A stretch of DNA of 64,000 nt, taken from assembly GCF_045037415.1 (NCBI RefSeq), contig NZ_CP173438.1. One strand, 5' to 3'. The notes below the pieces were generated by a model. The model was not told the origin of the DNA, did no database searches, and worked only from the letters and a program-made list of their open reading frames with translations. This DNA is from Escherichia coli. Lineage in GTDB: Bacteria; Pseudomonadota; Gammaproteobacteria; Enterobacterales; Enterobacteriaceae. Both the position numbers and the translations under genes were made by a program. This document shows, in pieces, positions 2,956 to 54,569 of the stretch; position 1 is the stretch's first letter, and the number at the start of each line of letters is the position of its first letter.

Positions 2956-3040
2956 TAGGTCGGATAAGACGCCCGGCGTCGCATCCGACAATGTGCAGAC
3001 GTTGATGCCGGATGCGGTGCAAGCACCTTATCCGGCCTAC
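2956..3040. repeat. REP element pair between phnD and phnE
   Basis: GTAGGTCGGATAAGACGCCCGGCGTCGCATCCGACA and TGCCGGATGCGGTGCAAGCACCTTATCCGGCCTAC palindromes. Confidence 0.8.
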
Positions 3041-8278: not shown

Positions 8279-8361
<83 letters not shown>

Positions 8362-11961: not shown

Positions 11962-12318
11962 TCAACGCCCATACTCATCTTCCATTCTCCGCTCTTCATC
12001 TTCCAGTTGCTGACGCTCCTGATCAAGCTGGCGCTGGCGTTCGTCCAGCTGCCTGCGGCGATCTTCAAACTGGCGGCGGCGGTCATCATATTGTCTGCGC
12101 CGATCGTCGCTCACTTCACGCTGCCAGCCGTCGTCGCGCGAATCTTCATAGTCTCGCCCACGGTCAGGGTTATAAGCGTCGTTAATCGCCTGCTGAATAT
12201 TGCCAATGGTGTCATCGATAATATCGGCCTGGGCCGGAACGGTGAACAGCGTGAACAGCGTGAACAGCGTGAACAGCGTGAACAGCGTGAATAAAAGAAA
12301 TAGCGGAAAGCGTTTCAT
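11962..12318 (-). CDS. yjdP: YjdP-like small secreted charged protein with expanded LFT-repeat signal peptide (118 aa)
   Basis: MKRFPLFLLFTLFTLFTLFTLFTLFTVPAQA signal peptide, then D/R/Q/E-rich low-complexity region; convergent with phnP. Confidence 0.8.
   Translation of the reverse strand: MKRFPLFLLFTLFTLFTLFTLFTLFTVPAQADIIDDTIGNIQQAINDAYNPDRGRDYEDSRDDGWQREVSDDRRRQYDDRRRQFEDRRRQLDERQRQLDQERQQLEDEERRMEDEYGR
12242..12291. repeat. Tandem 9-bp repeat (GTGAACAGC x5 plus partial copy) inside the yjdP signal-peptide coding region
   Basis: Five exact head-to-tail copies read directly from the sequence; each unit encodes LFT on the minus strand. Confidence 0.95.
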
Positions 12319-26820: not shown

Positions 26821-28968
26821 ATGAAAAAAGTCGTCACGGTTTGCCCCTATTGCGCATCAGGTTGCAAAATCAACCTGGTCGTCGATAACGGCAAAATCGT
26901 CCGGGCGGAGGCAGCGCAGGGGAAAACCAACCAGGGTACCCTGTGTCTGAAGGGTTATTATGGCTGGGACTTCATTAACGATACCCAGATCCTGACCCCG
27001 CGCCTGAAAACCCCCATGATCCGTCGCCAGCGTGGCGGCAAACTCGAACCTGTTTCCTGGGATGAGGCACTGAATTACGTTGCCGAGCGCCTGAGCGCCA
27101 TCAAAGAGAAGTACGGTCCGGATGCCATCCAGACGACCGGCTCCTCGCGCGGTACGGGTAACGAAACCAACTATGTAATGCAAAAATTTGCGCGCGCCGT
27201 TATTGGTACCAATAACGTTGACTGCTGCGCTCGTGTCTGACACGGCCCATCGGTTGCAGGTCTGCACCAATCGGTCGGTAATGGCGCAATGAGCAATGCT
27301 ATTAACGAAATTGATAATACCGATTTAGTGTTCGTTTTCGGGTATAACCCGGCGGATTCCCACCCAATCGTGGCGAATCACGTAATTAACGCTAAACGTA
27401 ACGGGGCGAAAATTATCGTCTGCGATCCGCGCAAAATTGAAACCGCGCGCATTGCTGACATGCACATTGCACTGAAAAACGGCTCGAACATCGCGCTGTT
27501 GAATGCGATGGGCCATGTCATTATTGAAGAAAATCTGTACGACAAAGCGTTCGTCGCTTCCCGTACAGAAGGCTTTGAAGAGTATCGTAAAATCGTTGAA
27601 GGCTACACGCCGGAGTCGGTTGAAGATATCACCGGCGTCAGCGCCAGTGAGATTCGTCAGGCGGCGCGGATGTATGCCCAGGCAGAAAGCGCCGCCATCC
27701 TGTGGGGCATGGGGGTAACCCAGTTCTATCAGGGCGTGGAAACCGTGCGTTCTCTGACCAGCCTCGCGATGCTGACCGGTAACCTCGGTAAGCCACATGC
27801 GGGTGTAAACCCGGTTCGTGGTCAGAACAACGTGCAGGGTGCCTGCGATATGGGCGCGCTGCCGGATACGTATCCGGGCTATCAGTACGTGAAAGATCCG
27901 GCTAACCGCGAGAAATTTGCCAAAGCCTGGGGCGTAGAGAGCCTGCCAGCGCATACCGGTTATCGTATCAGCGAGCTGCCGCACCGCGTGGCGCATGGTG
28001 AAGTGAGAGCGGCGTACATTATGGGCGAAGATCCGCTGCAAACTGACGCGGAACTGTCGGCAGTACGTAAAGCCTTTGAAGATCTGGAACTGGTTATCGT
28101 TCAGGACATCTTTATGACCAAAACCGCGTCGGCGGCGGATGTCATTTTACCGTCAACGTCGTGGGGCGAGCATGAAGGCGTGTTTACTGCGGCTGACCGT
28201 GGCTTCCAGCGTTTCTTCAAGGCGGTTGAGCCGAAGTGGGATCTGAAAACGGACTGGCAAATCATCAGTGAAATTGCCACTCGTATGGGTTATCCGATGC
28301 ACTACAACAACACCCAGGAGATCTGGGATGAGTTGCGTCATCTGTGCCCGGATTTCTACGGTGCGACTTACGAGAAAATGGGCGAACTGGGCTTCATTCA
28401 GTGGCCTTGCCGCGATACTTCAGATGCCGATCAGGGGACTTCTTATCTGTTTAAAGAGAAGTTTGATACCCCGAACGGTCTGGCGCAGTTCTTCACCTGC
28501 GACTGGGTAGCGCCAATCGACAAACTCACCGACGAATACCCGATGGTACTGTCAACGGTGCGTGAAGTTGGTCACTACTCTTGCCGTTCGATGACCGGTA
28601 ACTGTGCGGCACTGGCGGCGCTGGCTGATGAACCTGGCTACGCACAAATCAATACCGAAGACGCCAAACGTCTGGGTATTGAAGATGAGGCATTGGTTTG
28701 GGTGCACTCGCGTAAAGGCAAAATTATCACCCGTGCGCAGGTCAGCGATCGTCCGAACAAAGGGGCGATTTACATGACCTACCAGTGGTGGATTGGTGCC
28801 TGTAACGAGCTGGTGACCGAAAACTTAAGCCCGATTACGAAAACGCCGGAATACAAATACTGCGCCGTGCGCGTCGAGCCGATCGCCGATCAGCGCGCCG
28901 CCGAGCAGTACGTGATTGACGAGTACAACAAGTTGAAAACTCGCCTGCGCGAAGCGGCACTGGCGTAA
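26821..28968 (+). CDS. fdhF: FdhF, formate dehydrogenase H, selenocysteine at codon 140 (715 aa)
   Basis: Two in-frame six-frame ORFs (26821-27240 and 27289-28968) separated only by TGA at 27238-27240; N-terminal Fe-S cysteines (CPYCASGC) and molybdopterin oxidoreductase body. Confidence 0.95.
27241..27285 (+). other. SECIS stem-loop directing selenocysteine insertion at the fdhF UGA
   Basis: CACGGCCCATCGGTTGCAGGTCTGCACCAATCGGTCGGTAATGGC immediately 3' of the in-frame TGA; matches the fdhF SECIS as recalled. Confidence 0.85.
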
Positions 28969-29057: not shown

Positions 29058-29342
29058 ACATACCTGCGCAGTCAAACCAGCCTATCCTGGTTATTAGCGA
29101 CGTCTTCTCGGTTGTTCTTCTATTCCAGTCACGATTGCAAATGAGAATTATCTTTACTCAATTCTCATCGCGGCCTAACGTAATAATACTTTACATTTGA
29201 TGAACCAAATTTCGGTAAGGTGAGAAATCATCGACCGTTTAACTCGTTCTATTAACGGGATATTTTGGCGCGATTAATGCAACAAAACCCCGTCTGATAG
29301 AATATTAATAACCTCAAAGTAATTTCAGGGATTGGGAAGCAT

Positions 29343-30911
29343 ATGATTAAAAAACTATTACCTTTACTGGTTTTAAGCACAATTTCCGCCACAACCGTTG
29401 CCGCTACACCGCCTAATACGTTGGTTGTAGCCCAGGGGCTGGATGATATTGTGAGCCTGGACCCGGCAGAAGCTAATGAACTCTCAAGTATTCAGACTGT
29501 ACCAAGTCTGTATCAACGCGTAGTGCAACCGGACCGTAATGATCCGACGAAAATTACTCCGATTCTGGCGGAAAGTTGGCAGGCTGACCCCGCAGCCAAA
29601 ACGCTAACCATAAAACTGAAAAGCGATGCGAAATTTGCCTCTGGTAATCCGGTACGCCCGGAAGATGTGATTTACTCTTATGTCCGGGCTGTCACACTGA
29701 ATAAATCCGGTGCGTTTATTCTCAATGTGCTGGGATGGCAGCCGGAAAATATCGCCAGCCAGTTGAAGAAAATCGATGACCATACCGTCCAGGTGCAATG
29801 GAGTGCCGACGTCAGCCCGGCTCTGGCACTGAATATTCTCTCCACACCAATCGCCTCAATTGTTGACGAGAAGCTGGTTGCGCCAAACGCCAAAAATAAC
29901 GACTTTGGTAATGAATGGCTGAAGATGCATTCCGCTGGCAGCGGCGCGTTTAAAATGCGTACTTACCAACCGCATCAGGCCATCGTGATGGAAGCCAACG
30001 CCAGCTCACCAACCGGCGCCCCGAAACTGAAAAGCGTCATCATCAAAAATGTTCCCGATCCGGCAACACGTCGCCTGCTGATCCAACAAGGTGATGCTGA
30101 TATGGCTCGTGATCTGGGAGCCGATCAAATCGATGCATTACAGGGTAAACCTGGCGTAAAAGTGATGAGCATTGCCTCCGCCGAACAGAACTACCTGGCC
30201 TTCAATACCGGTAACAAGGATAACCCGCTGATGAGTAATCCTGCGTTCTGGGAGGCCGCTCGCTGGTTGGTCGATTACGACGGCATCACCAAAAATCTCT
30301 TAAAAGGACAATATTTTACCCATCAGAGTTTCCTGCCCGTGGGCTTTCCTGGAGCACTGGAAGAAACACCGTTTACCTTTAATCCAGCCAAAGCAAAAGA
30401 GATCCTCGCTAAAGCCGGAATCAAAGACCCGCACTTCACGCTTGATGTCGAAAATAAACCGCCATTTATTACCATCGCGCAGTCAATTCAGGCCAGCTTT
30501 GCTCAGGGCGGTGTAAAAGTTGATTTGCTGCCAGCCGCAGGGAGTCAGGTCTACTCTCGCGTTCGCGCCCACCAGCATCAGGGGGCCATTCGTATGTGGT
30601 TGCCTGATTATTTTGACGCACATTCCAACGCCAGCTCTTTCGCCTATAACGATGGCAAATCCAGCACCGTTGCCGGGTTAAACGGCTGGAAAATCCCGGA
30701 ACTGAACAAAGAAACGCTGGCGGCCATCGCTGAACCTGATAGCACTAAACGTCTTGATTTGTATAAGAAAATGCAACAAGAACTACAACGTAGTTCCCCG
30801 TATGTCTTTATTGATCAAGGCAAAACGCAAATTGTCATGCGTGATAATGTGCAGGGGTATCAACAAGGGTTGAATGCCGATATGGTCTGGTTTGATCAGG
30901 TAACCAAATAA
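29343..30911 (+). CDS. ABC transporter periplasmic substrate-binding protein, SBP family 5 (Opp/Dpp/Nik type), 522 aa
   Basis: ATG at 29343 after GGGAAG; signal peptide MIKKLLPLLVLSTISATTVAA; size typical of NikA/DppA-type binding proteins. Confidence 0.85.
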   Translation: MIKKLLPLLVLSTISATTVAATPPNTLVVAQGLDDIVSLDPAEANELSSIQTVPSLYQRVVQPDRNDPTKITPILAESWQADPAAKTLTIKLKSDAKFASGNPVRPEDVIYSYVRAVTLNKSGAFILNVLGWQPENIASQLKKIDDHTVQVQWSADVSPALALNILSTPIASIVDEKLVAPNAKNNDFGNEWLKMHSAGSGAFKMRTYQPHQAIVMEANASSPTGAPKLKSVIIKNVPDPATRRLLIQQGDADMARDLGADQIDALQGKPGVKVMSIASAEQNYLAFNTGNKDNPLMSNPAFWEAARWLVDYDGITKNLLKGQYFTHQSFLPVGFPGALEETPFTFNPAKAKEILAKAGIKDPHFTLDVENKPPFITIAQSIQASFAQGGVKVDLLPAAGSQVYSRVRAHQHQGAIRMWLPDYFDAHSNASSFAYNDGKSSTVAGLNGWKIPELNKETLAAIAEPDSTKRLDLYKKMQQELQRSSPYVFIDQGKTQIVMRDNVQGYQQGLNADMVWFDQVTK

Positions 30912-31010
30912 CCCTGTATGCAACTCGCGTCCAGCCATGTTACCGGGCGCGGTACCAGGGCTGGCCTGTATTGCAGGCCAGCCGCTGATTTATCACTGTA
31001 TGGAAAGATC

Positions 31011-32060
31011 ATGTCTGTCGTTTTTTCCACTCGCGCAAGATGGCGAGGCAAACGCCCTCTGCTCGCGCTGTTGCAAGGGCTGTTTACCGTTGCTCTGACG
31101 CTACTCGGCCTGCTGCTGATTACCTTTGCGCTTTCGGCTCTCTCACCGGTCGATCGCGTACTACAAATCGTTGGCGATCACGCCAGCCAGTCCACCTATG
31201 ATCAGGTACGCCACCAGTTAGGATTGGATCAGCCGTTAGCCGTCCAGTTCTGGCATTACCTGATGAATCTGGCACACGGCGATCTGGGCATCGCCAGCTC
31301 CACCGGGCAACCAGTACTCCAGGACTTGCTATCAGCATTCCCGGCGACCATTGAACTGGCAACGTTGGCGCTTATTGTCGGTGCTGTTGTCGGCGTCATT
31401 GCGGGTGTACTTTGCGCCCGTTATGTCGGTTCTCCGCTGGATTTCACCGTGCGAACATTAACTCTACTGGGAAATTCCGTCCCTGTTTTTTGGCTTGGTC
31501 TGCTGATGCTGGCGCTGTTCTACGCCAGACTGCAATGGAGTGCCGGGCCGGGCAGGCTGGATGATATTTATCAATTCACCATAGAACCCCGCAGCGGATT
31601 TGCGCTGATTGATACGTGGCTTTCTGGCGATCGCGAGGCATTTACCAATGCAATCAACCATTTGATACTTCCGGTTTTATTACTGGCGTACTTCTCGCTC
31701 GCCAGTATTACGCGCCTGACTCGTTCCGCCTGTCTTGGCGAAATGAATAAAGAATATATTCTGCTGGCGCGCGCCAAAGGGGCCAGCGAGATGACAATTT
31801 TGCTACGTCATGTTTTACCCAACATTCGCGGCACCTTGCTCACCGTTATCGCCCTCGCCTATACATCAATGCTGGAAGGCGCGGTACTGACAGAAACCGT
31901 CTTTTCATGGCCAGGTATTGGGCGCTACCTCACTACAGCGCTCTTCGCGGGTGATACCACAGCAATCATGGGAGGAACGCTGCTGATTGGCGTCTGCTTT
32001 GTGTTGATAAATAACTTAACCGACCTGCTGGTCCGGCTGACCGATCCGAGGTTACGCTGA
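31011..32060 (+). CDS. ABC transporter permease (DppB/NikB-like), about 349 aa
   Basis: Multi-TM; start at the in-frame ATG at 31011 after a hairpin (30976-30988); the six-frame ORF extends upstream to 30918, so the start is uncertain. Confidence 0.75.
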   Translation: MSVVFSTRARWRGKRPLLALLQGLFTVALTLLGLLLITFALSALSPVDRVLQIVGDHASQSTYDQVRHQLGLDQPLAVQFWHYLMNLAHGDLGIASSTGQPVLQDLLSAFPATIELATLALIVGAVVGVIAGVLCARYVGSPLDFTVRTLTLLGNSVPVFWLGLLMLALFYARLQWSAGPGRLDDIYQFTIEPRSGFALIDTWLSGDREAFTNAINHLILPVLLLAYFSLASITRLTRSACLGEMNKEYILLARAKGASEMTILLRHVLPNIRGTLLTVIALAYTSMLEGAVLTETVFSWPGIGRYLTTALFAGDTTAIMGGTLLIGVCFVLINNLTDLLVRLTDPRLR

Positions 32061-32893
32061 TGCCGATGTTTCTCTTTTTACGCCGTTTACGCCATTCACC
32101 CGCCGCGTTTTGCGGGTTGATAATTATCCTGTTATTGATGCTAATTGCGCTCTTCGCGCCGTGGCTGGCACCTCACGATCCTAACTGGCAGGATGCGGCG
32201 GCGCGATTACAAGCACCGAGTCGTCAGCACTGGCTCGGCACTGACAGTTACGGGCGAGACCTACTTTCACGTTTAATCTACGGCAGCCGCCCGGCACTGG
32301 GGCTGGTGGCATTGGTGACAATCATTACACTCCCGGTCGGTCTGCTGATTGGCATTTTAGCCGGGTACTACGGCGGCTGGCTGGAACGCGTGCTGATGCG
32401 TTTTACTGACATAGTAATGTCAATGCCGCGTTTAATTCTGGCTTTTGCTTTTGTTGCCATGCTGGGGCCGGGGCTGGTTAACGGCGCACTGGCCCTTGCA
32501 TTAACCACCTGGCCTGCTTATGCGCGTCAGGCACGGAGTGAGATCCAACGTCTGCGACACAGTGATTATCTTGCCGCCGCAGAAATGATGGGCATCCGCG
32601 GCAGGCGTCTGCTGGCTGGTCATATTTTGCCATTGTGCCTGCCATCTGCCATTGTCCGTCTGGCGCTGGATTTAGCGGGTATCATTCTGGCGGCTGCTGG
32701 TCTGGGTTTTCTTGGGCTTGGTGCTCGCCCGCCAATGGCGGAATGGGGAGCCATGATCGCCGACGGTATGCAGGTCATTTTTGATCAATGGTGGATTGCC
32801 GCCGCTCCCGGCGCAATTATCTTAATTGCCAGTCTGGCCTTTAATCTGCTGGGTGATGGCTTGCGCGATGTTCTGGAGCCTCAACATGACTGA
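32060..32893 (+). CDS. ABC transporter permease (DppC/NikC-like), 277 aa
   Basis: Multi-TM; start overlaps the previous stop. Confidence 0.85.
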   Translation: MPMFLFLRRLRHSPAAFCGLIIILLLMLIALFAPWLAPHDPNWQDAAARLQAPSRQHWLGTDSYGRDLLSRLIYGSRPALGLVALVTIITLPVGLLIGILAGYYGGWLERVLMRFTDIVMSMPRLILAFAFVAMLGPGLVNGALALALTTWPAYARQARSEIQRLRHSDYLAAAEMMGIRGRRLLAGHILPLCLPSAIVRLALDLAGIILAAAGLGFLGLGARPPMAEWGAMIADGMQVIFDQWWIAAAPGAIILIASLAFNLLGDGLRDVLEPQHD

Positions 32894-33722
32894 CTCACGT
32901 CTTAGTATCAACAATCTCTGCGTCGATTATCCGGAGTCCCGGGTCGTCAACAATGTCAGTTTTACATTAGGCAATGAACGTCTGGCGCTGGTCGGTGAGT
33001 CGGGTTCAGGTAAGTCCATGACCGCCCGCGCCCTGATGGGGCTGGTGCGTAAACCGGGTGTAGTAACCGCGGACACACTTAACATTCTGGGGCGTGATGC
33101 ACTCACCCTTAACGCGCGTGGATGGCAACAGTTGCGCGGTAACGATATCGCGATGGTATTGCAAGATCCGCGTTACGCGCTTAATCCAGTAAAGACAGTA
33201 AAAGCGCAACTGGAAGAGGCGCTTACGCTCCATCAACGTCTGAACCGCCGCGAGAAAGAAGAGAAAATAAACACCGCAATTCAGGCTGTCGGCCTCAATA
33301 CGCGAGTACTGCAAAGCTATCCTCGTGAACTTTCTGGCGGCATGGGGCAGCGAGTGATGATTGCAATTGCGCTCATCAACGATCCCCGGGTATTGATTGC
33401 CGATGAGCCAACATCAGCACTAGATGTGCGCCTGCGTAATCAGATTCTGGAACTGCTGGTTACCCAGTGTGAACAACGTCAGATGGCAATGTTGCTGATC
33501 AGTCACGACCTGCCATTAGTTGCCCAATTTTGCCATCGGGTGCTGGTGATGTATCAGGGAAATAAGGTGGATGAAATGCACGCTGCTGCGCTACCTACAG
33601 CAACGCATCCTTACACGCGCACACTGTGGACTTGCCGCCCAAATGCACAAACTTACGGGCAGATGCTGCCGACGCTGGACAGGACGGCAATGACGCCGGA
33701 GAAATACCATGACGATTGTTGA
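32886..33722 (+). CDS. ABC transporter ATP-binding protein (DppD/NikD-like), 278 aa
   Basis: ATG at 32886 overlapping the permease stop; Walker A GESGSGKS, signature LSGGMGQR, Walker B LIADEP. Confidence 0.85.
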   Translation: MTDSRLSINNLCVDYPESRVVNNVSFTLGNERLALVGESGSGKSMTARALMGLVRKPGVVTADTLNILGRDALTLNARGWQQLRGNDIAMVLQDPRYALNPVKTVKAQLEEALTLHQRLNRREKEEKINTAIQAVGLNTRVLQSYPRELSGGMGQRVMIAIALINDPRVLIADEPTSALDVRLRNQILELLVTQCEQRQMAMLLISHDLPLVAQFCHRVLVMYQGNKVDEMHAAALPTATHPYTRTLWTCRPNAQTYGQMLPTLDRTAMTPEKYHDDC

Positions 33723-34413
33723 AATTAATCACTTACAGGTGACTTTTGCTGAGAAAACCGCAGTTTCTGCCGCCAGTTTTTCGGTTAATGCCGGAGAGAC
33801 ATTTAGTTTAATTGGCGAATCAGGCTGCGGAAAATCCACGATTTTGCGCGTAATTGCTGGATTACAGCGCGACTGGCACGGTCAGGTGTCACTGTTTGGG
33901 CACACCATCAAACCAGGAATGCGTTTTCAGGGCGATCTCCGCCGCAATGTGCAAATGGTGTTTCAGGATCCCTATGCCTCGTTGCATCCCAATCATACTC
34001 TGTGGCGAACGCTGGCTGAACCACTCAAAATTCGTGGCGAAAGAGAAATAGAAAAACGCGTCCAGACTGCACTGGAACAGGTTGGCTTGCCTTTCGACGC
34101 CGCTCGTCGCTACCCACACCAGCTTTCCGGTGGTCAACGGCAACGTGTGGTTATTGCTCGCGCCCTGTTGTTACGACCACAACTTCTTCTGCTGGATGAA
34201 CCCACCTCGGCGTTGGATATGTCGGTACAAGCGGAAATCCTTAATTTGTTGAATCAACTTAAGCTGGAACACCAAATGACATATCTGCTGGTCAGTCACG
34301 ATGCCGATGTCATCGCGCATATGTCTGATCGAGCGGCATTGATGTCCGAGGGAAAAATTCAGCGATTTTTTGATCGCGACGCCATGGAAAAGGGGGAACA
34401 TCGGATGGATTAA
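33709..34413 (+). CDS. ABC transporter ATP-binding protein (DppF/NikE-like), 234 aa
   Basis: Walker A GESGCGKST, signature LSGGQRQR, Walker B LLLDEP; overlaps the previous gene. Confidence 0.85.
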   Translation: MTIVEINHLQVTFAEKTAVSAASFSVNAGETFSLIGESGCGKSTILRVIAGLQRDWHGQVSLFGHTIKPGMRFQGDLRRNVQMVFQDPYASLHPNHTLWRTLAEPLKIRGEREIEKRVQTALEQVGLPFDAARRYPHQLSGGQRQRVVIARALLLRPQLLLLDEPTSALDMSVQAEILNLLNQLKLEHQMTYLLVSHDADVIAHMSDRAALMSEGKIQRFFDRDAMEKGEHRMD

Positions 34414-34523: not shown

Positions 34524-35213
34524 ATGAAAAAAATTATCACTTTGATGTTGTTTTTGACATTCTTTGCCCACGCGAACGACTCCGAGCCTGGCAGCCAGTA
34601 TTTAAAGGCAGCAGAGGCCGGAAACCGACGCGCACAATATTTTCTTGCCGACAGCTGGTTTAGCTCCGGCGATTTGAGCAAAGCCGAATATTGGGCACAG
34701 AAAGCCGCCGACAGCGGTGATGCCGATGCCTGCGCGCTGTTGGCGCAGATCAAAATCACCAATCCGGTCAGTCTGGACTATCCACAAGCAAAAGTGCTTG
34801 CCGAGAAAGCAGCGCAAGCGGGCAGTAAAGAAGGTGAAGTAACGCTGGCGCATATTCTGGTAAATACGCAAGCGGGTAAACCGGATTATCCAAAGGCGAT
34901 TTCGCTGTTAGAAAACGCCTCGGAAGATCTGGAGAACGACTCTGCCGTCGATGCCCAAATGCTGCTTGGTTTGATTTACGCCAACGGCGTGGGCATTAAG
35001 GCCGACGATGACAAAGCAACCTGGTATTTCAAACGTAGCTCTGCGATTTCCCGAACCGGTTATTCCGAATACTGGGCGGGAATGATGTTCTTAAACGGTG
35101 AAGAGGGTTTTATCGAGAAGAATAAACAAAAGGCGCTGCACTGGTTGAATCTGAGCTGTATGGAAGGATTTGATACCGGTTGTGAAGAGTTTGAAAAATT
35201 AACTAACGGTTAA
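34524..35213 (+). CDS. yjcO: YjcO, Sel1-repeat secreted protein (229 aa)
   Basis: ATG at 34524 giving MKKIITLMLFLTFFAHA signal peptide and Sel1/TPR-like repeats. Confidence 0.88.
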   Translation: MKKIITLMLFLTFFAHANDSEPGSQYLKAAEAGNRRAQYFLADSWFSSGDLSKAEYWAQKAADSGDADACALLAQIKITNPVSLDYPQAKVLAEKAAQAGSKEGEVTLAHILVNTQAGKPDYPKAISLLENASEDLENDSAVDAQMLLGLIYANGVGIKADDDKATWYFKRSSAISRTGYSEYWAGMMFLNGEEGFIEKNKQKALHWLNLSCMEGFDTGCEEFEKLTNG

Positions 35214-35215
35214 GG

Positions 35216-35660
35216 TAGGCGCAGCAAACGTCGCATCAGGCATTGATGTCGGATGCGGCGTAAACGCCTTATCCGACCTACAAAAATCACGCCAAATCAG
35301 GCTATTGCGCTGTCTGACGTAGGCCTGATAAGACACGTCAGCATCGCATCAGACATTGATGCCGGATGCGGCGTAAACGCCTTATCCGACCTACAAAAAT
35401 CACGCCAAATCAGGCTATTGCGCTGTCTGGCGTAGGCCTGATAAGACGCGGCAAGCGTCGCATCAGGCGTTGATGTCGGATGCGGCGTAAACGCCTTATC
35501 CGACCTACAAAAATCACGCCAAATCAGGCTATTGCGCTGTCTGGCGTAGGCCTGATAAGACGCGTTAAGCGTCGCATCAGGCGTTGATGTCGGATGCGGC
35601 GTAAACGCCTTATCCGACCTACAAAAATCACGCTACATCAGGCTATTACTCAGTCAGGCA
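35216..35660. repeat. BIME/REP cluster: four tandem copies of a 114-124 bp composite REP unit
   Basis: GGATGCGGCGTAAACGCCTTATCCGACCTAC recurs at 35240, 35364, 35478 and 35592, each followed by GTAGGCCTGATAAGAC...GCGTCGCATCAG. Confidence 0.9.
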
Positions 35661-35701
35661 TCCACACATTGCCGGGTGGATATCCCCCCGGCAATCTTCA
35701 A

Positions 35702-37015
35702 TTACTGATCTGCTGTTTTATCAAATTTGCCCAACATTTCACGCTCGTAGGCCAGCGCTTTTTTACGGTCAAATTTGTGTTCCCACTTGGCAATCACCAG
35801 CACCGCCAGCGCATTACCCACCACGTTCAGCGCAGTACGCGCCATATCGAGGATACGGTCAACACCGGCAATAAACGCCAGACCTTCCAGCGGAATACCT
35901 ACGCTACCCAGCGTTGCCAGCAGCACCACAAACGACACGCCCGGCACGCCAGCAATCCCTTTCGAGGTCACCATCAGCGTCAGCACCAGAATGATTTCCT
36001 GCCAGATGGACAGGTCAATGCCATACAGCTGAGCGATGAAAATAGCGGCAATACTTTGATACAGCGTCGAACCATCAAGGTTAAAAGAGTAACCGGTCGG
36101 CACCACGAAACTGGTGATCGACGCCGGTGCACCGTAGGCTTCCATCTTCTCAATAATTCGCGGCAGCACGCTTTCAGAACTGGCAGTAGAGTACGCCAGA
36201 ATCAGCTCATCTTTCAGAATACGAATCAGGATCCAGACACTTAACCCGCACAGGCGCGCCACAATTCCCAGTACGACCAGCGCGAAGAACAGAATGGCGA
36301 AATGCACCAGCAGCACCAGTTTCGCCAGTGGCCACAGAGAAGAGAAACCAAAGTTAGCCACCGTCACCGCAATCAGCGCAAACACACCCACCGGCGCATA
36401 ACGCATCACCATGTGAGTCACTTTAAACATGGTTTCAGAGATGGAGCGGAAAACGGTCACCAGCGGTTCACGATGCGTCGCGGGCAGGGATGAAAGCCCC
36501 AGACCAAACAGCACCGAGAAGAAGATGATCGGCAGCATTTCGCCTTTCGCCATCGACGCCACGATGTTCGTCGGCACCAGCGACAAAATCGTGCCCATAA
36601 TGCCGTGGGAACTGCTTTGTACCGCTTCCGTAGTGCTCTGATATTTCGAGATATCGACGGTCGCCAGCTGCGACATATCCACCCCGGCACCGGGCTGGAA
36701 GACGTTCGCCAGAGTGATCCCCAAAATGATGGCGACGGTGGTGATCACCTCGAAGTAGATAATGGTTTTCGCACCAATACGCCCGAGCTGTTTGGCATCA
36801 CCAACACCCGCGATACCCACCACCAGCGTGGAGATCACAATCGGCACAACAATCATTTTGATCAGATGGATGAAGATATCACCCGCCGGAGAGAGCAAAT
36901 TGACGACCAGCCAGTCGCGGCTGTCGCTATGGTAGTGCAGGTAGCTTCCCAGGAGAATGCCCAGCACCATAGCAAACAGAATCTGCCAGGCCAGGCTGAA
37001 TTTTATATTTTTCAT
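35702..37015 (-). CDS. gltP: GltP, glutamate/aspartate:proton symporter (437 aa)
   Basis: DAACS-family translation MKNIKFSLAWQILFAMVLGILLG... Confidence 0.93.
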   Translation of the reverse strand: MKNIKFSLAWQILFAMVLGILLGSYLHYHSDSRDWLVVNLLSPAGDIFIHLIKMIVVPIVISTLVVGIAGVGDAKQLGRIGAKTIIYFEVITTVAIILGITLANVFQPGAGVDMSQLATVDISKYQSTTEAVQSSSHGIMGTILSLVPTNIVASMAKGEMLPIIFFSVLFGLGLSSLPATHREPLVTVFRSISETMFKVTHMVMRYAPVGVFALIAVTVANFGFSSLWPLAKLVLLVHFAILFFALVVLGIVARLCGLSVWILIRILKDELILAYSTASSESVLPRIIEKMEAYGAPASITSFVVPTGYSFNLDGSTLYQSIAAIFIAQLYGIDLSIWQEIILVLTLMVTSKGIAGVPGVSFVVLLATLGSVGIPLEGLAFIAGVDRILDMARTALNVVGNALAVLVIAKWEHKFDRKKALAYEREMLGKFDKTADQ

Positions 37016-46093: not shown

Positions 46094-46207
46094 GTCGGAT
46101 GCGCTCCGACCTACATCTGGCAACGGCTGTAGGTCGGATAAGATGCGCCAGCATCGCATCCGACAACAAGCGCCGGATGCGGCGTGAATGCCTTATCCGG
46201 CCTACAT
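46094..46207. repeat. REP element cluster after acs
   Basis: GTCGGATGCGCTCCGACCTAC, GTAGGTCGGATAAGATGCGCCAGCATCGCATCCGAC and GCCGGATGCGGCGTGAATGCCTTATCCGGCCTAC. Confidence 0.85.
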
Positions 46208-46293
46208 TCGGCAAGGGTTACCCAAGCGTTAACCTTCTCCCATAAGGGAGCGGGAATTAAAACAATCCCTACATTACCTCTGGAGAATCTGTG

Positions 46294-48254
<1,961 letters not shown>

Positions 48255-53558: not shown

Positions 53559-54080
53559 AAGAAAACATCCCCTGAGAGTTTAATTTTCGTCAAGATGCGT
53601 GGCGGACAATCCCCTGCCAGCGAAACGTTATCTTCCTGCTCCAGGTTTGCGACAATTTGCTGCGTCGCAAAAAAAGCAAACGTTTAGCTCCGCGCATACA
53701 AAACGGGTGGTAAAAAAAGCAAACGATTATCCGGCGATCATAGCGGCTTTTTCAACCGAAGTTTGCTGCTTTTTTCTCTTTTATTGTCTTGACGATGAAA
53801 AACCAGGCAATTGATGCGCAAACGTTATCGTCGATGCGCAAGATTGCAGCGTTATCGAGCCGTATACCGTTCAGGATTGCGATAAAAAATCGTCTGAGAT
53901 GACAAAAATATTGCGGCTAAAAAGTGTACTTTTACACTGGCGAAGAAACGCCGGTAACATACAATTAAAGCATCAACACCAACCGGAACCTCCACCACGT
54001 GCTCGAATGAGGTGTGTTGACGTCGGGGGAAACCCTCCTGTGTACCAGCGGGATAGAGAGAAAGACAAAGACCGGAAAAC

Positions 54081-54111
54081 AAACTAAAGCGCCCTTGTGG
54101 CGCTTTAGTTT
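54081..54111. terminator. Hairpin at the 3' end of soxR
   Basis: AAACTAAAGCGCC-cttgt-GGCGCTTTAGTTT 13-bp stem overlapping the soxR stop codon. Confidence 0.6.
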
Positions 54112-54569
54112 TGTTCATCTTCCAGTAAGCGTGCGCCGGTACCTTCTTCTCCTAAGCGGTCGCCCGGGTTACGCAACGGGCAATCACTGCGCGAAAGGCA
54201 GCCACAACCAATACATCCATCCAGTTCGTCACGCAGCGCCACTAAGGTATGAATGCGCCGATCCAACTCTTCTCGCCATTGGGACGAAAGCTGTTTCCAC
54301 TCTTTCGCACTTAACGTATGCCCTTCTGGCAACACGCCAAACGCTTCACGAATGGTTGCGAGCGGAATGCCAATACGCTGAGCAATTTTGATAATTGCGA
54401 CATATCGCAACACATCACGTTTATATCGCCGCTGATTGCCGCTATTACGGATACTGGTAATCAACCCTTTGCTTTCATAGAAATGCAGCGCCGATACCGC
54501 CACACCGCTGCGTTTCGCCACTTCGCCGGGTGTTAGCAGCGCTTTAATGCGGGGTAATTTCTTTTCCAT
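54105..54569 (-). CDS. soxR: SoxR, MerR-family redox-sensing [2Fe-2S] transcriptional activator (154 aa)
   Basis: C-terminal [12 protein letters not shown] cluster motif; N-terminal MerR HTH. Confidence 0.96.

Follow-up and report, generated by a model that had tools for sequence, protein, structure and literature searches.

The intergenic region at positions 35215 to 35659 of the window, by which we mean the whole 64-kb stretch of E. coli DNA analysed here, carries the yjcO-gltP BIME of E. coli in an SK1144-like allele; both this type of element and the locus itself are already known. We hold this identification, jointly with the origin and the 3′-UTR and gyrase role proposed below, with great confidence. 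Tandem repeat searches and dissection of the individual parts describe the array, to which no strand is assigned, as (Z2 - 6 nt - Y - 36/37-nt linker) x 3.8 with a period of 113–114 bp. Each unit consists, in this order, of a Z2-type REP on the minus strand, a 6-nt head-to-head linker, a Y-type REP on the plus strand and a 36–37-nt tail-to-tail linker. REP and BIME arrays have been known since the 1980s–90s, among them the families of Gilson, Bachellier and Hofnung.

Tandem Repeats Finder placed the array at 35220–35647 (period 114, 3.8 copies, 93% matches, 0 indels, score 751) and reported no other long-period tandem repeat within the 64-kb window, and an independent repeat finder returned 4 copies spaced by 113, 114 and 114 bp. 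The four head-to-tail tandem copies that the initial annotation had seen at 35216–35660 are therefore confirmed, and its boundaries are accurate, since the positions given by both programs agree with them. The proposed unit length of 114–124 bp has to be corrected to the measured period of 113–114 bp. As for the few substitutions said to separate the copies, this holds for the three full units, whose pairwise identity is 93–97%, but not for the fourth copy, which is only about 70–73% identical in the same register, as its sequence continues into the unique flank. A CRISPR array was considered and excluded, since both inter-REP segments are themselves repeated (the three linkers differ at no more than one position) and two different palindromes alternate in opposite orientation. 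An assembly artefact was also excluded, since many independent complete genomes share an identical array of 445 bp.

REPs were searched for with consensus patterns ending in CCTAC, allowing up to three mismatches, for which the chance expectation in shuffled sequences was 0.00. Four plus-strand Y REPs alternate with Z2 REPs in minus orientation, and both types fit their consensus with 0–2 mismatches, in agreement with the earlier description of a composite of oppositely oriented REPs. Y REP 1 (GTCGGATGCGGCGTAAACGCCTTATCCGACCTAC) lies at 35248–35281 and its 2 mismatches are mutually compensating within the stem, and Y REP 2 lies at 35361–35394, with 1 mismatch; Y REP 3 (35475–35508) was identified by pattern match and folding, and Y REP 4 (35589–35622) by pattern match. 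The one or two mismatches that each Y REP shows to the consensus amount to a compensating stem variant, GTCGGAT...ATCCGAC. On the minus strand, a defective first Z2 REP (35215–35241) was recognised by allele comparison, by folding and by a naRNA4 model score of 46.7 bits. It is followed by Z2 REP 2 (35319–35354), a 36-nt variant with several transitions that lies inside a naRNA4 match at 35322–35391 (69.0 bits), and by Z2 REPs 3 (35432–35468) and 4 (35546–35582), both canonical and without mismatches to the pattern. The head-to-head linker leading from Z2 to Y is 6 nt long and reads RTTGAT. The tail-to-tail linker from Y to the next Z2 is 37 nt long (AAAAATCACGCCAAATCAGGCTATTGCGCTGTCTGGC) and is present on the plus strand in three full copies, at 35282–35318, 35395–35431 and 35509–35545. 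Each of them holds one AATCAGGCTATTG (at 35295–35307, 35408–35420 and 35522–35534, respectively), a perfect match to the IHF core consensus WATCARNNNNTTR, with an A-tract 8 nt upstream.

The intact REPs fold as expected for their kind. Z2 REP 3 gives a hairpin of -20.4 kcal/mol (z = -5.4) and Y, calculated on copy Y3, which is identical in sequence to Y1, one of -19.2 kcal/mol; z is about -5.4 for these intact Z2 and Y hairpins and none of 200 shuffles was as stable. On either strand, the whole region folds 10–11 standard deviations better than shuffled sequences. Intact Z2 and Y copies thus combine a stable hairpin of 30–40 nt, a GTAG/CTAC foot and a match to the consensus, and they belong to a dispersed family: used as a query, the array had matches in 5425 of 5426 genomes, with a median of 29 places in each. 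Within the window, further Y or Y/Z2 copies are found at 401–484, 8279–8312 and 46132–46205.

Both ends of the array are damaged in this allele. The remnant of the first Z2 begins 1 nt past the yjcO stop codon and has lost the stem arm next to GTAG (GTAGGC^GCAGCAAACGTCGCATCAGGC versus GTAGGCCTGATAAGACGCGGCAAGCGTCGCATCAGGC in other alleles). It folds at -4.2 kcal/mol, a value that 165 of 200 shuffles equalled or surpassed. Y1, 34 nt past the yjcO stop codon, is the first stable hairpin of the window allele. At the other end, comparison with alleles that have an intact terminal Z2 showed that the last linker (35623–35659, plus strand, AAAAATCACGCTACATCAGGCTATTACTCAG) keeps around 27 nt and then diverges, and that the deleted terminal Z2 is reduced to a TCAGGC remnant.

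The array is intergenic and lies between two stop codons. The Sel1-family protein gene yjcO (34524–35213, plus strand) is a listed open reading frame and is so named by PGAP in SK1144, where the DNA is 100% identical, while the gltP coding sequence (35702–37015, minus strand), encoding a glutamate/aspartate:proton symporter, is supported by PGAP and by the NCBIfam equivalog NF008440 (905.5 bits, cut-off 638). Many complete E. coli genomes, SK1144 among them, match the 1.5 kb surrounding the array at 100% identity; there PGAP shows yjcO and gltP converging on the array with no feature annotated between them. The location between yjcO and gltP given by the initial annotation is thus borne out by PGAP of identical DNA and by the NF008440 match, and so is the hairpin it noted at the 3′ end of gltP. 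This hairpin is a GC-rich inverted repeat at 35668–35695, found by the repeat finder and by folding and given without strand, whose 14-nt arms (35668–35681 and 35682–35695) are 93% complementary; it lies 6 nt past the gltP stop codon, folds stably on either strand (-18.5 kcal/mol on the plus and -20.6 kcal/mol on the minus strand) and recurs in every allele read, zero-unit ones included. It has no canonical U-tract on either strand and a consensus scan called no intrinsic terminator there. The same scan called none within the array, where a scan for promoter-like sites also returned nothing.

How the element should be classified depends on which of its parts is considered. [quoted passage not shown] Unlike a textbook BIME-2, its tail-to-tail linker resembles the BIME-1 L motif. 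This comparison used two BIME-1 reference copies, livF-ugpB and fbaA-mscS, which were recovered with a BIME-1 sequence as query; in the best-matching genomes that query aligned along its full length at 96–97%, and in essentially every genome at least 80% of it was covered. The linker is collinear with the L motif of both copies (AAAATC..GC.AA.TCA...TATTGC), with 20–21 of 36–37 positions identical, a score reached by 0–17 of 5000 shuffles. As in BIME-1, Y is followed by a tail-to-tail, L-like linker of 36 nt that starts with AAAATC and contains TCA...TATTGC, but the partner REP of the array is a 37-nt Z2 instead of the 29-nt Z1 of livF-ugpB and fbaA-mscS, and the array is multi-copy whereas BIME-1 is single-copy. 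The long linker may therefore be derived from, or convergent on, the BIME-1 L motif. By the definitions quoted in PMC3333891, the combination of Z2 with an L-type linker would make the element an atypical BIME rather than a strict BIME-2. The best label, judged by comparison with the two BIME-1 copies, appears to be a Y/Z2 multi-copy BIME with an L-like linker, BIME-2-like or atypical. Its closest counterpart is the orthologous gltP-yjcO BIME of K-12 MG1655, which is flanked by the same two genes, is built of the same Z2 - 6 nt - Y - 36-nt linker unit and shares the gltP hairpin. The MG1655 array has 5 units of 113 bp, an intact Z2 at both ends and the linker CGCTAAATC, whereas the window array has 3.8 units of 113–114 bp and the linker CGCCAAATC, with one extra A; its first Z2 is truncated and its terminal Z2 deleted.

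Copy number at this junction varies widely among strains, as the initial annotation had anticipated. A flank-only query, made of 500 nt of yjcO and another 500 nt that run from the hairpin into gltP, was used against 5,426 complete E. coli genomes and insert sizes were read in 59 of them, evenly spaced down the match ranking. Zero units (inserts of 34–37 bp) were found in 21 of the 59 genomes, one unit (104–148 bp) in 9, two units (259–261 bp) in 8, three units (373–374 bp) in 6 and four units (445 or 486–487 bp) in 13, with a single genome each for six units (670 bp) and seven units (784 bp); MG1655 has 5 units. Twelve alleles read base by base agree with this variation and follow one scheme, namely the yjcO stop codon, (Z2 - 6 nt - Y - linker)n, Z2, CACACA and the gltP hairpin, of which the zero-unit allele retains a single Z2 and the hairpin. 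The length differences among the 12 alleles are whole units of 113–114 bp, in perfect register. A subgroup shares the damaged ends, with the first Z2 truncated and the last deleted: the window (n=4), AHB2 (n=1), CUVET20-PYO2 (n=6) and LTC201 (n=7). Because this end structure is common to the subgroup, it must be older than the copy-number changes inside it. All 6 sampled genomes with flanks 100% identical to those of the window carried the 4-unit allele, from which it follows that the array is stable at the clone level, and ECO21, whose flanks are 99.9% identical, has zero units and an intact Z2. The array is, then, stable within a clone and variable between lineages, and this combination is what allows it to separate lineages in typing, a use that had been suggested for it. 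Judged by strain name only, the SK1144-like strains look like ST131 / phylogroup B2. Assemblies labelled K-12 MG1655 differ from each other by exactly one unit at this site (530 versus 643 nt of intergenic sequence). As a separate observation, the MG1655 reference has a 2-nt discrepancy at the yjcO-gltP array.

How did the array reach these different lengths? The 60-nt linker/Z2 junction was found in 2,628 of the 5,426 genomes, at 1–8 places in each; in K-12-derived rows it occurs at 4–5 places, as many as there are local copies, which makes the linker private to the yjcO/gltP locus. Its variants are distributed by lineage: CGCCAAATC has three copies in the window and one in LTC201, CGCTACATC makes up the rest of LTC201 and all of CUVET20, and CGCTAAATC fills all arrays that are not of the B2 type. 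Taken together, the private linkers, the homogenised variants and the in-register length steps of whole units indicate that the array grew and shrank in situ rather than by repeated insertion. The recent amplification proposed by the initial annotation can be retained in part: the expansion is lineage-specific, with CGCCAAATC repeated three times in the window, but the 4-unit allele is stable in all 6 genomes with identical flanks. The main route would be slipped misalignment (replication slippage) or unequal sister exchange between the 113-bp direct repeats, with the REP-associated tyrosine transposase TnpA_REP/RayT as a plausible contributor to the gain and loss of units.

A stronger role for this enzyme has some biochemistry behind it. 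One may propose that the array was built and resized mainly by single-strand cleavage and rejoining by TnpA_REP/RayT at iREP and linker sites, and not by host slippage or recombination. In PMC3333891 (Ton-Hoang 2012), part of the MG1655 gltP-yjcO BIME was used as oligonucleotide B319, in whose linker TnpA_REP cut four sites in vitro, and the enzyme also catalysed recombination in vitro by which REPs are added; the cleavage core reported for it, the dinucleotide C^T, occurs in the linker studied here. According to the same paper, tandem copies within a locus are well conserved, while their number differs between strains. However, all 12 of the alleles read differ by whole 113–114-bp units in register, as homology-driven misalignment predicts, the MG1655-labelled assemblies differ by exactly one such unit, and tnpA_REP is missing from many E. 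coli strains (36/110), for which reasons we consider a mainly transposase-driven origin unlikely and favour misalignment between the direct repeats. For evolved E. coli, PMC12625342 lists duplications of 164 kb and 86 kb that have an end-point at gltP/yjcO; this would fit REP arrays acting as recombination substrates, an attribution to REPs that PMC12625342 itself does not make.

With respect to function, the likely role of the array is that of a 3′-UTR hairpin block and a possible gyrase site. At the RNA level, REP hairpins in the 3′ region shared by the two convergent genes would impede 3′-exonucleases, and the hairpin block would partly attenuate read-through in both directions. At the DNA level, the Y/Z2 array would act as a preferred gyrase site and would absorb positive supercoils between the convergent transcription units, to which the L-like linker may add IHF binding. 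Both gyrase and IHF had been mentioned in the initial annotation as possible ligands, and binding of either to the array is plausible on account of its BIME-2 make-up of Y and Z2 and of its L-like linker with the IHF core. IHF binding is classically a BIME-1 property, attached to the L motif, and gyrase binding a BIME-2 property (PMC3333891, PMC6379681, PMC2817692); gyrase cleavage is enriched in BIME-2 with a preference for y REPs (PMC6379681). The Topo-seq supplement, which carries no gene names, lists sites at 4295905/6; the gyrase reading proposed here draws on the literature on the BIME-2 family and not on these sites. A literature search on IHF at the yjcO-gltP locus found nothing specific. 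Whatever the array does, more than one third of the sampled genomes (21/59, 36%) have only one Z2 REP and the gltP hairpin, so the extra units are dispensable and probably near-neutral, and this zero-unit state argues against an essential role. In addition, since the gltP hairpin lies upstream of the array on the gltP transcript, the array may add little to the gltP mRNA.

Other readings of the array assign it more specific products or effects. Four ATG-initiated open reading frames of 35–216 codons, starting at 35253, 35366, 35480 and 35594, exist inside the Y REPs and might encode real small proteins. Against this, the start codon and the first ten codons of these frames are the Y REP itself. 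The Y REP sequence occurs at hundreds of loci. A Pfam scan of two of these frames, those at 35253 and 35594, gave no significant match, PGAP annotates no gene here in identical genomes, the frames vanish in zero-unit alleles and the longest one runs antisense to gltP; the chance that they are genes is negligible, and the initial annotation was right to call them spurious. A non-coding product has somewhat more to recommend it. On the minus strand, the one that gltP read-through would transcribe, three units score 77.1, 75.2 and 69.0 bits with the Rfam model RF02564 (naRNA4), for which REP325 units were the basis, above its gathering score of 59.5, which the truncated first unit does not reach. 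The units could in that case be genes for naRNA4-like nucleoid-associated non-coding RNAs that bind HU and condense the chromosome, as proposed for REP325; the nucleoid-condensing role of naRNA4 comes from PMC4550694. The REP325 array (yjdM-yjdN) shows the same Y/Z2 doublet architecture, and, a point in favour of this reading, at the REP325 locus the window has only one Y-Z2 pair (404–481) versus six units in K-12. [quoted passage not shown] Against a nucleoid RNA, the naRNA4 model passes at three more Y/Z2 doublets in the window, 404–481 and the unrelated 2958–3037 and 46132–46202, so it is in effect a generic detector of Y/Z2 doublets; the array contains no promoter-like site by our scan, 21 of the 59 sampled genomes have no unit at all, and a preprint (bioRxiv 10.64898/2026.03.23.713779) reports that deletion or over-expression of REP325/naRNA4 leaves nucleoid size unchanged. 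We consequently give very little credence to a nucleoid RNA at this site, and we read both the naRNA4 matches and the Y-REP-initiated open reading frame calls as generic REP doublets, not as genes. The same preprint describes REP325 as a terminator and stabiliser and finds REP-bearing convergent gene pairs to be more highly expressed.

A further possibility concerns the position of the first REP. Liang, Rudd and Deutscher reportedly found in 2015 that a REP located no more than 15 nt from a stop codon makes the terminating ribosome stall and causes the mRNA to be cleaved. A summary of this 15-nt rule appears in PMC12306157. The stop-proximal REP might in this manner down-regulate yjcO translation, with the rest of the array being incidental, and in most alleles an intact first Z2 does start 1–2 nt after the yjcO stop codon. 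In the window, however, this Z2 has lost one stem arm and makes no proper fold, and Y1, as the first stable hairpin, lies well outside the 15 nt, which makes repression an improbable account of the array studied here. With the first Z2 disabled, any REP-mediated repression of yjcO would be relieved in the window allele, a speculative consequence. This relief also enters a more ambitious proposal, in which the locus-private, L-derived linker would make each unit a combined IHF and gyrase site, and copy number (0 to at least 7, different unit variants having expanded separately in different lineages) a heritable dial for supercoil relief, read-through and mRNA stability of gltP and yjcO, with loss of the stop-proximal Z2 arm lifting yjcO repression; we find it decidedly improbable. 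The reading that we retain is that of a 3′-UTR hairpin block and possible gyrase site whose additional units are probably near-neutral.

The array is an ordinary BIME of a kind already described, and the same locus of K-12 has already served as a biochemical substrate, so that it is of little importance as a discovery and its value is mainly practical. What the present analysis adds is descriptive: a series of alleles with 0–7 units, lineage-specific damaged ends, an L-like and locus-private linker with an IHF core, and the non-specificity of the naRNA4 model. In practice, the array is a known trap for read-mapping and assembly, and K-12 assemblies disagree at it by one unit. The locus is also a clean VNTR, since primers in the unique yjcO and gltP sequences would give amplicons whose length separates the 0–7-unit alleles, and within this range the SK1144-like clone consistently carries the 4-unit allele with truncated ends.

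The K-12 assemblies disagree on the number of units (Z2 REP, 6 nt, Y REP and a 36/37-nt linker) that make up the BIME between yjcO and gltP. The MG1655 reference (NC_000913.3, 4295795-4296435) carries five, and its first Y REP has a 2-nt gap (CG). This gap corresponds to the '+CG at 4,296,380' call (PMC4330922), which an MG1655 stock showed at a frequency of 100%. Strain MGY also has five units, with the CG present and an intergenic region of 643 nt, whereas there are four units and 530 nt of intergenic sequence both in NZ_CP010438.1, an assembly that bears the label 'K-12 MG1655', and in a derivative of W3110. The DH1 and S17-1 assemblies show an insert of the same length as the four-unit K-12 assemblies, 487 bp. 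Either some laboratory lineages have truly gained or lost a single unit, or the array collapsed during assembly.

Further alleles were found in other strains. O157:H7 TW14359 has a single unit, and a 12-nt deletion within the linker takes out the IHF-like core. ECO21 has no units and an intact Z2, though its flanks match the window at 99.9% identity. The window allele, with four units, has its first Z2 truncated and its last Z2 deleted; losing units alone could not turn it into the ECO21 allele, which points to replacement by recombination or to an earlier divergence. On the yjcO side of the array, we observed that fdhF directly adjoins yjcO in K-12, whereas in the window lineage a five-gene ABC transporter operon (a substrate-binding protein, two permeases and two ATPases; about 29340-34410) lies in between. 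The fdhF SECIS element scores 87.1 bits and sraL, an sRNA, 153.3 bits; both are in the window, listed at 27233-27287 and 53972-54112.

REP loops are the classic target of IS1397. In the complete genome SK1144, the Y REP loop of the acs-yjcH intergenic BIME is split by a copy of this element (GCGGCGTGAAT | IS | AATGCCTTATCC; 46145-47493 in the SK1144 stretch), whereas the same Y REP is uninterrupted in the window (BIME at 46132-46205). The two strains are identical over 1.5 kb around the yjcO/gltP array, but this difference shows that SK1144 cannot itself be the source of the window.

Other repeats are present in the window. A perfect 9-bp tandem repeat (GTGAACAGC, 5.6 copies, 12242-12291) sits at the start of yjdP or immediately upstream, and a looser 21-bp repeat (12036-12108) lies inside this minus-strand gene, annotated as 'DDRRRQL repeat protein'; the region is probably another length-variable locus. 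The phn operon region contains further REP doublets, one at 2958-3037 (naRNA4 model, 65.3 bits) and one at 8279-8360, where a Y REP is paired with a second REP-like palindrome.

The much-studied REP325/naRNA4 locus, between yjdM and yjdN, consists of 5.8 tandem 100-bp units in K-12 MG1655, whereas the window strain has only one Y-Z2 doublet there (390-484), of which 404-481 scores 88.9 bits with the Rfam naRNA4 model. The units at REP325 and yjcO/gltP number 1 and 4 in the window and 6 and 5 in K-12; therefore, BIME copy number at these two neighbouring loci varies independently.
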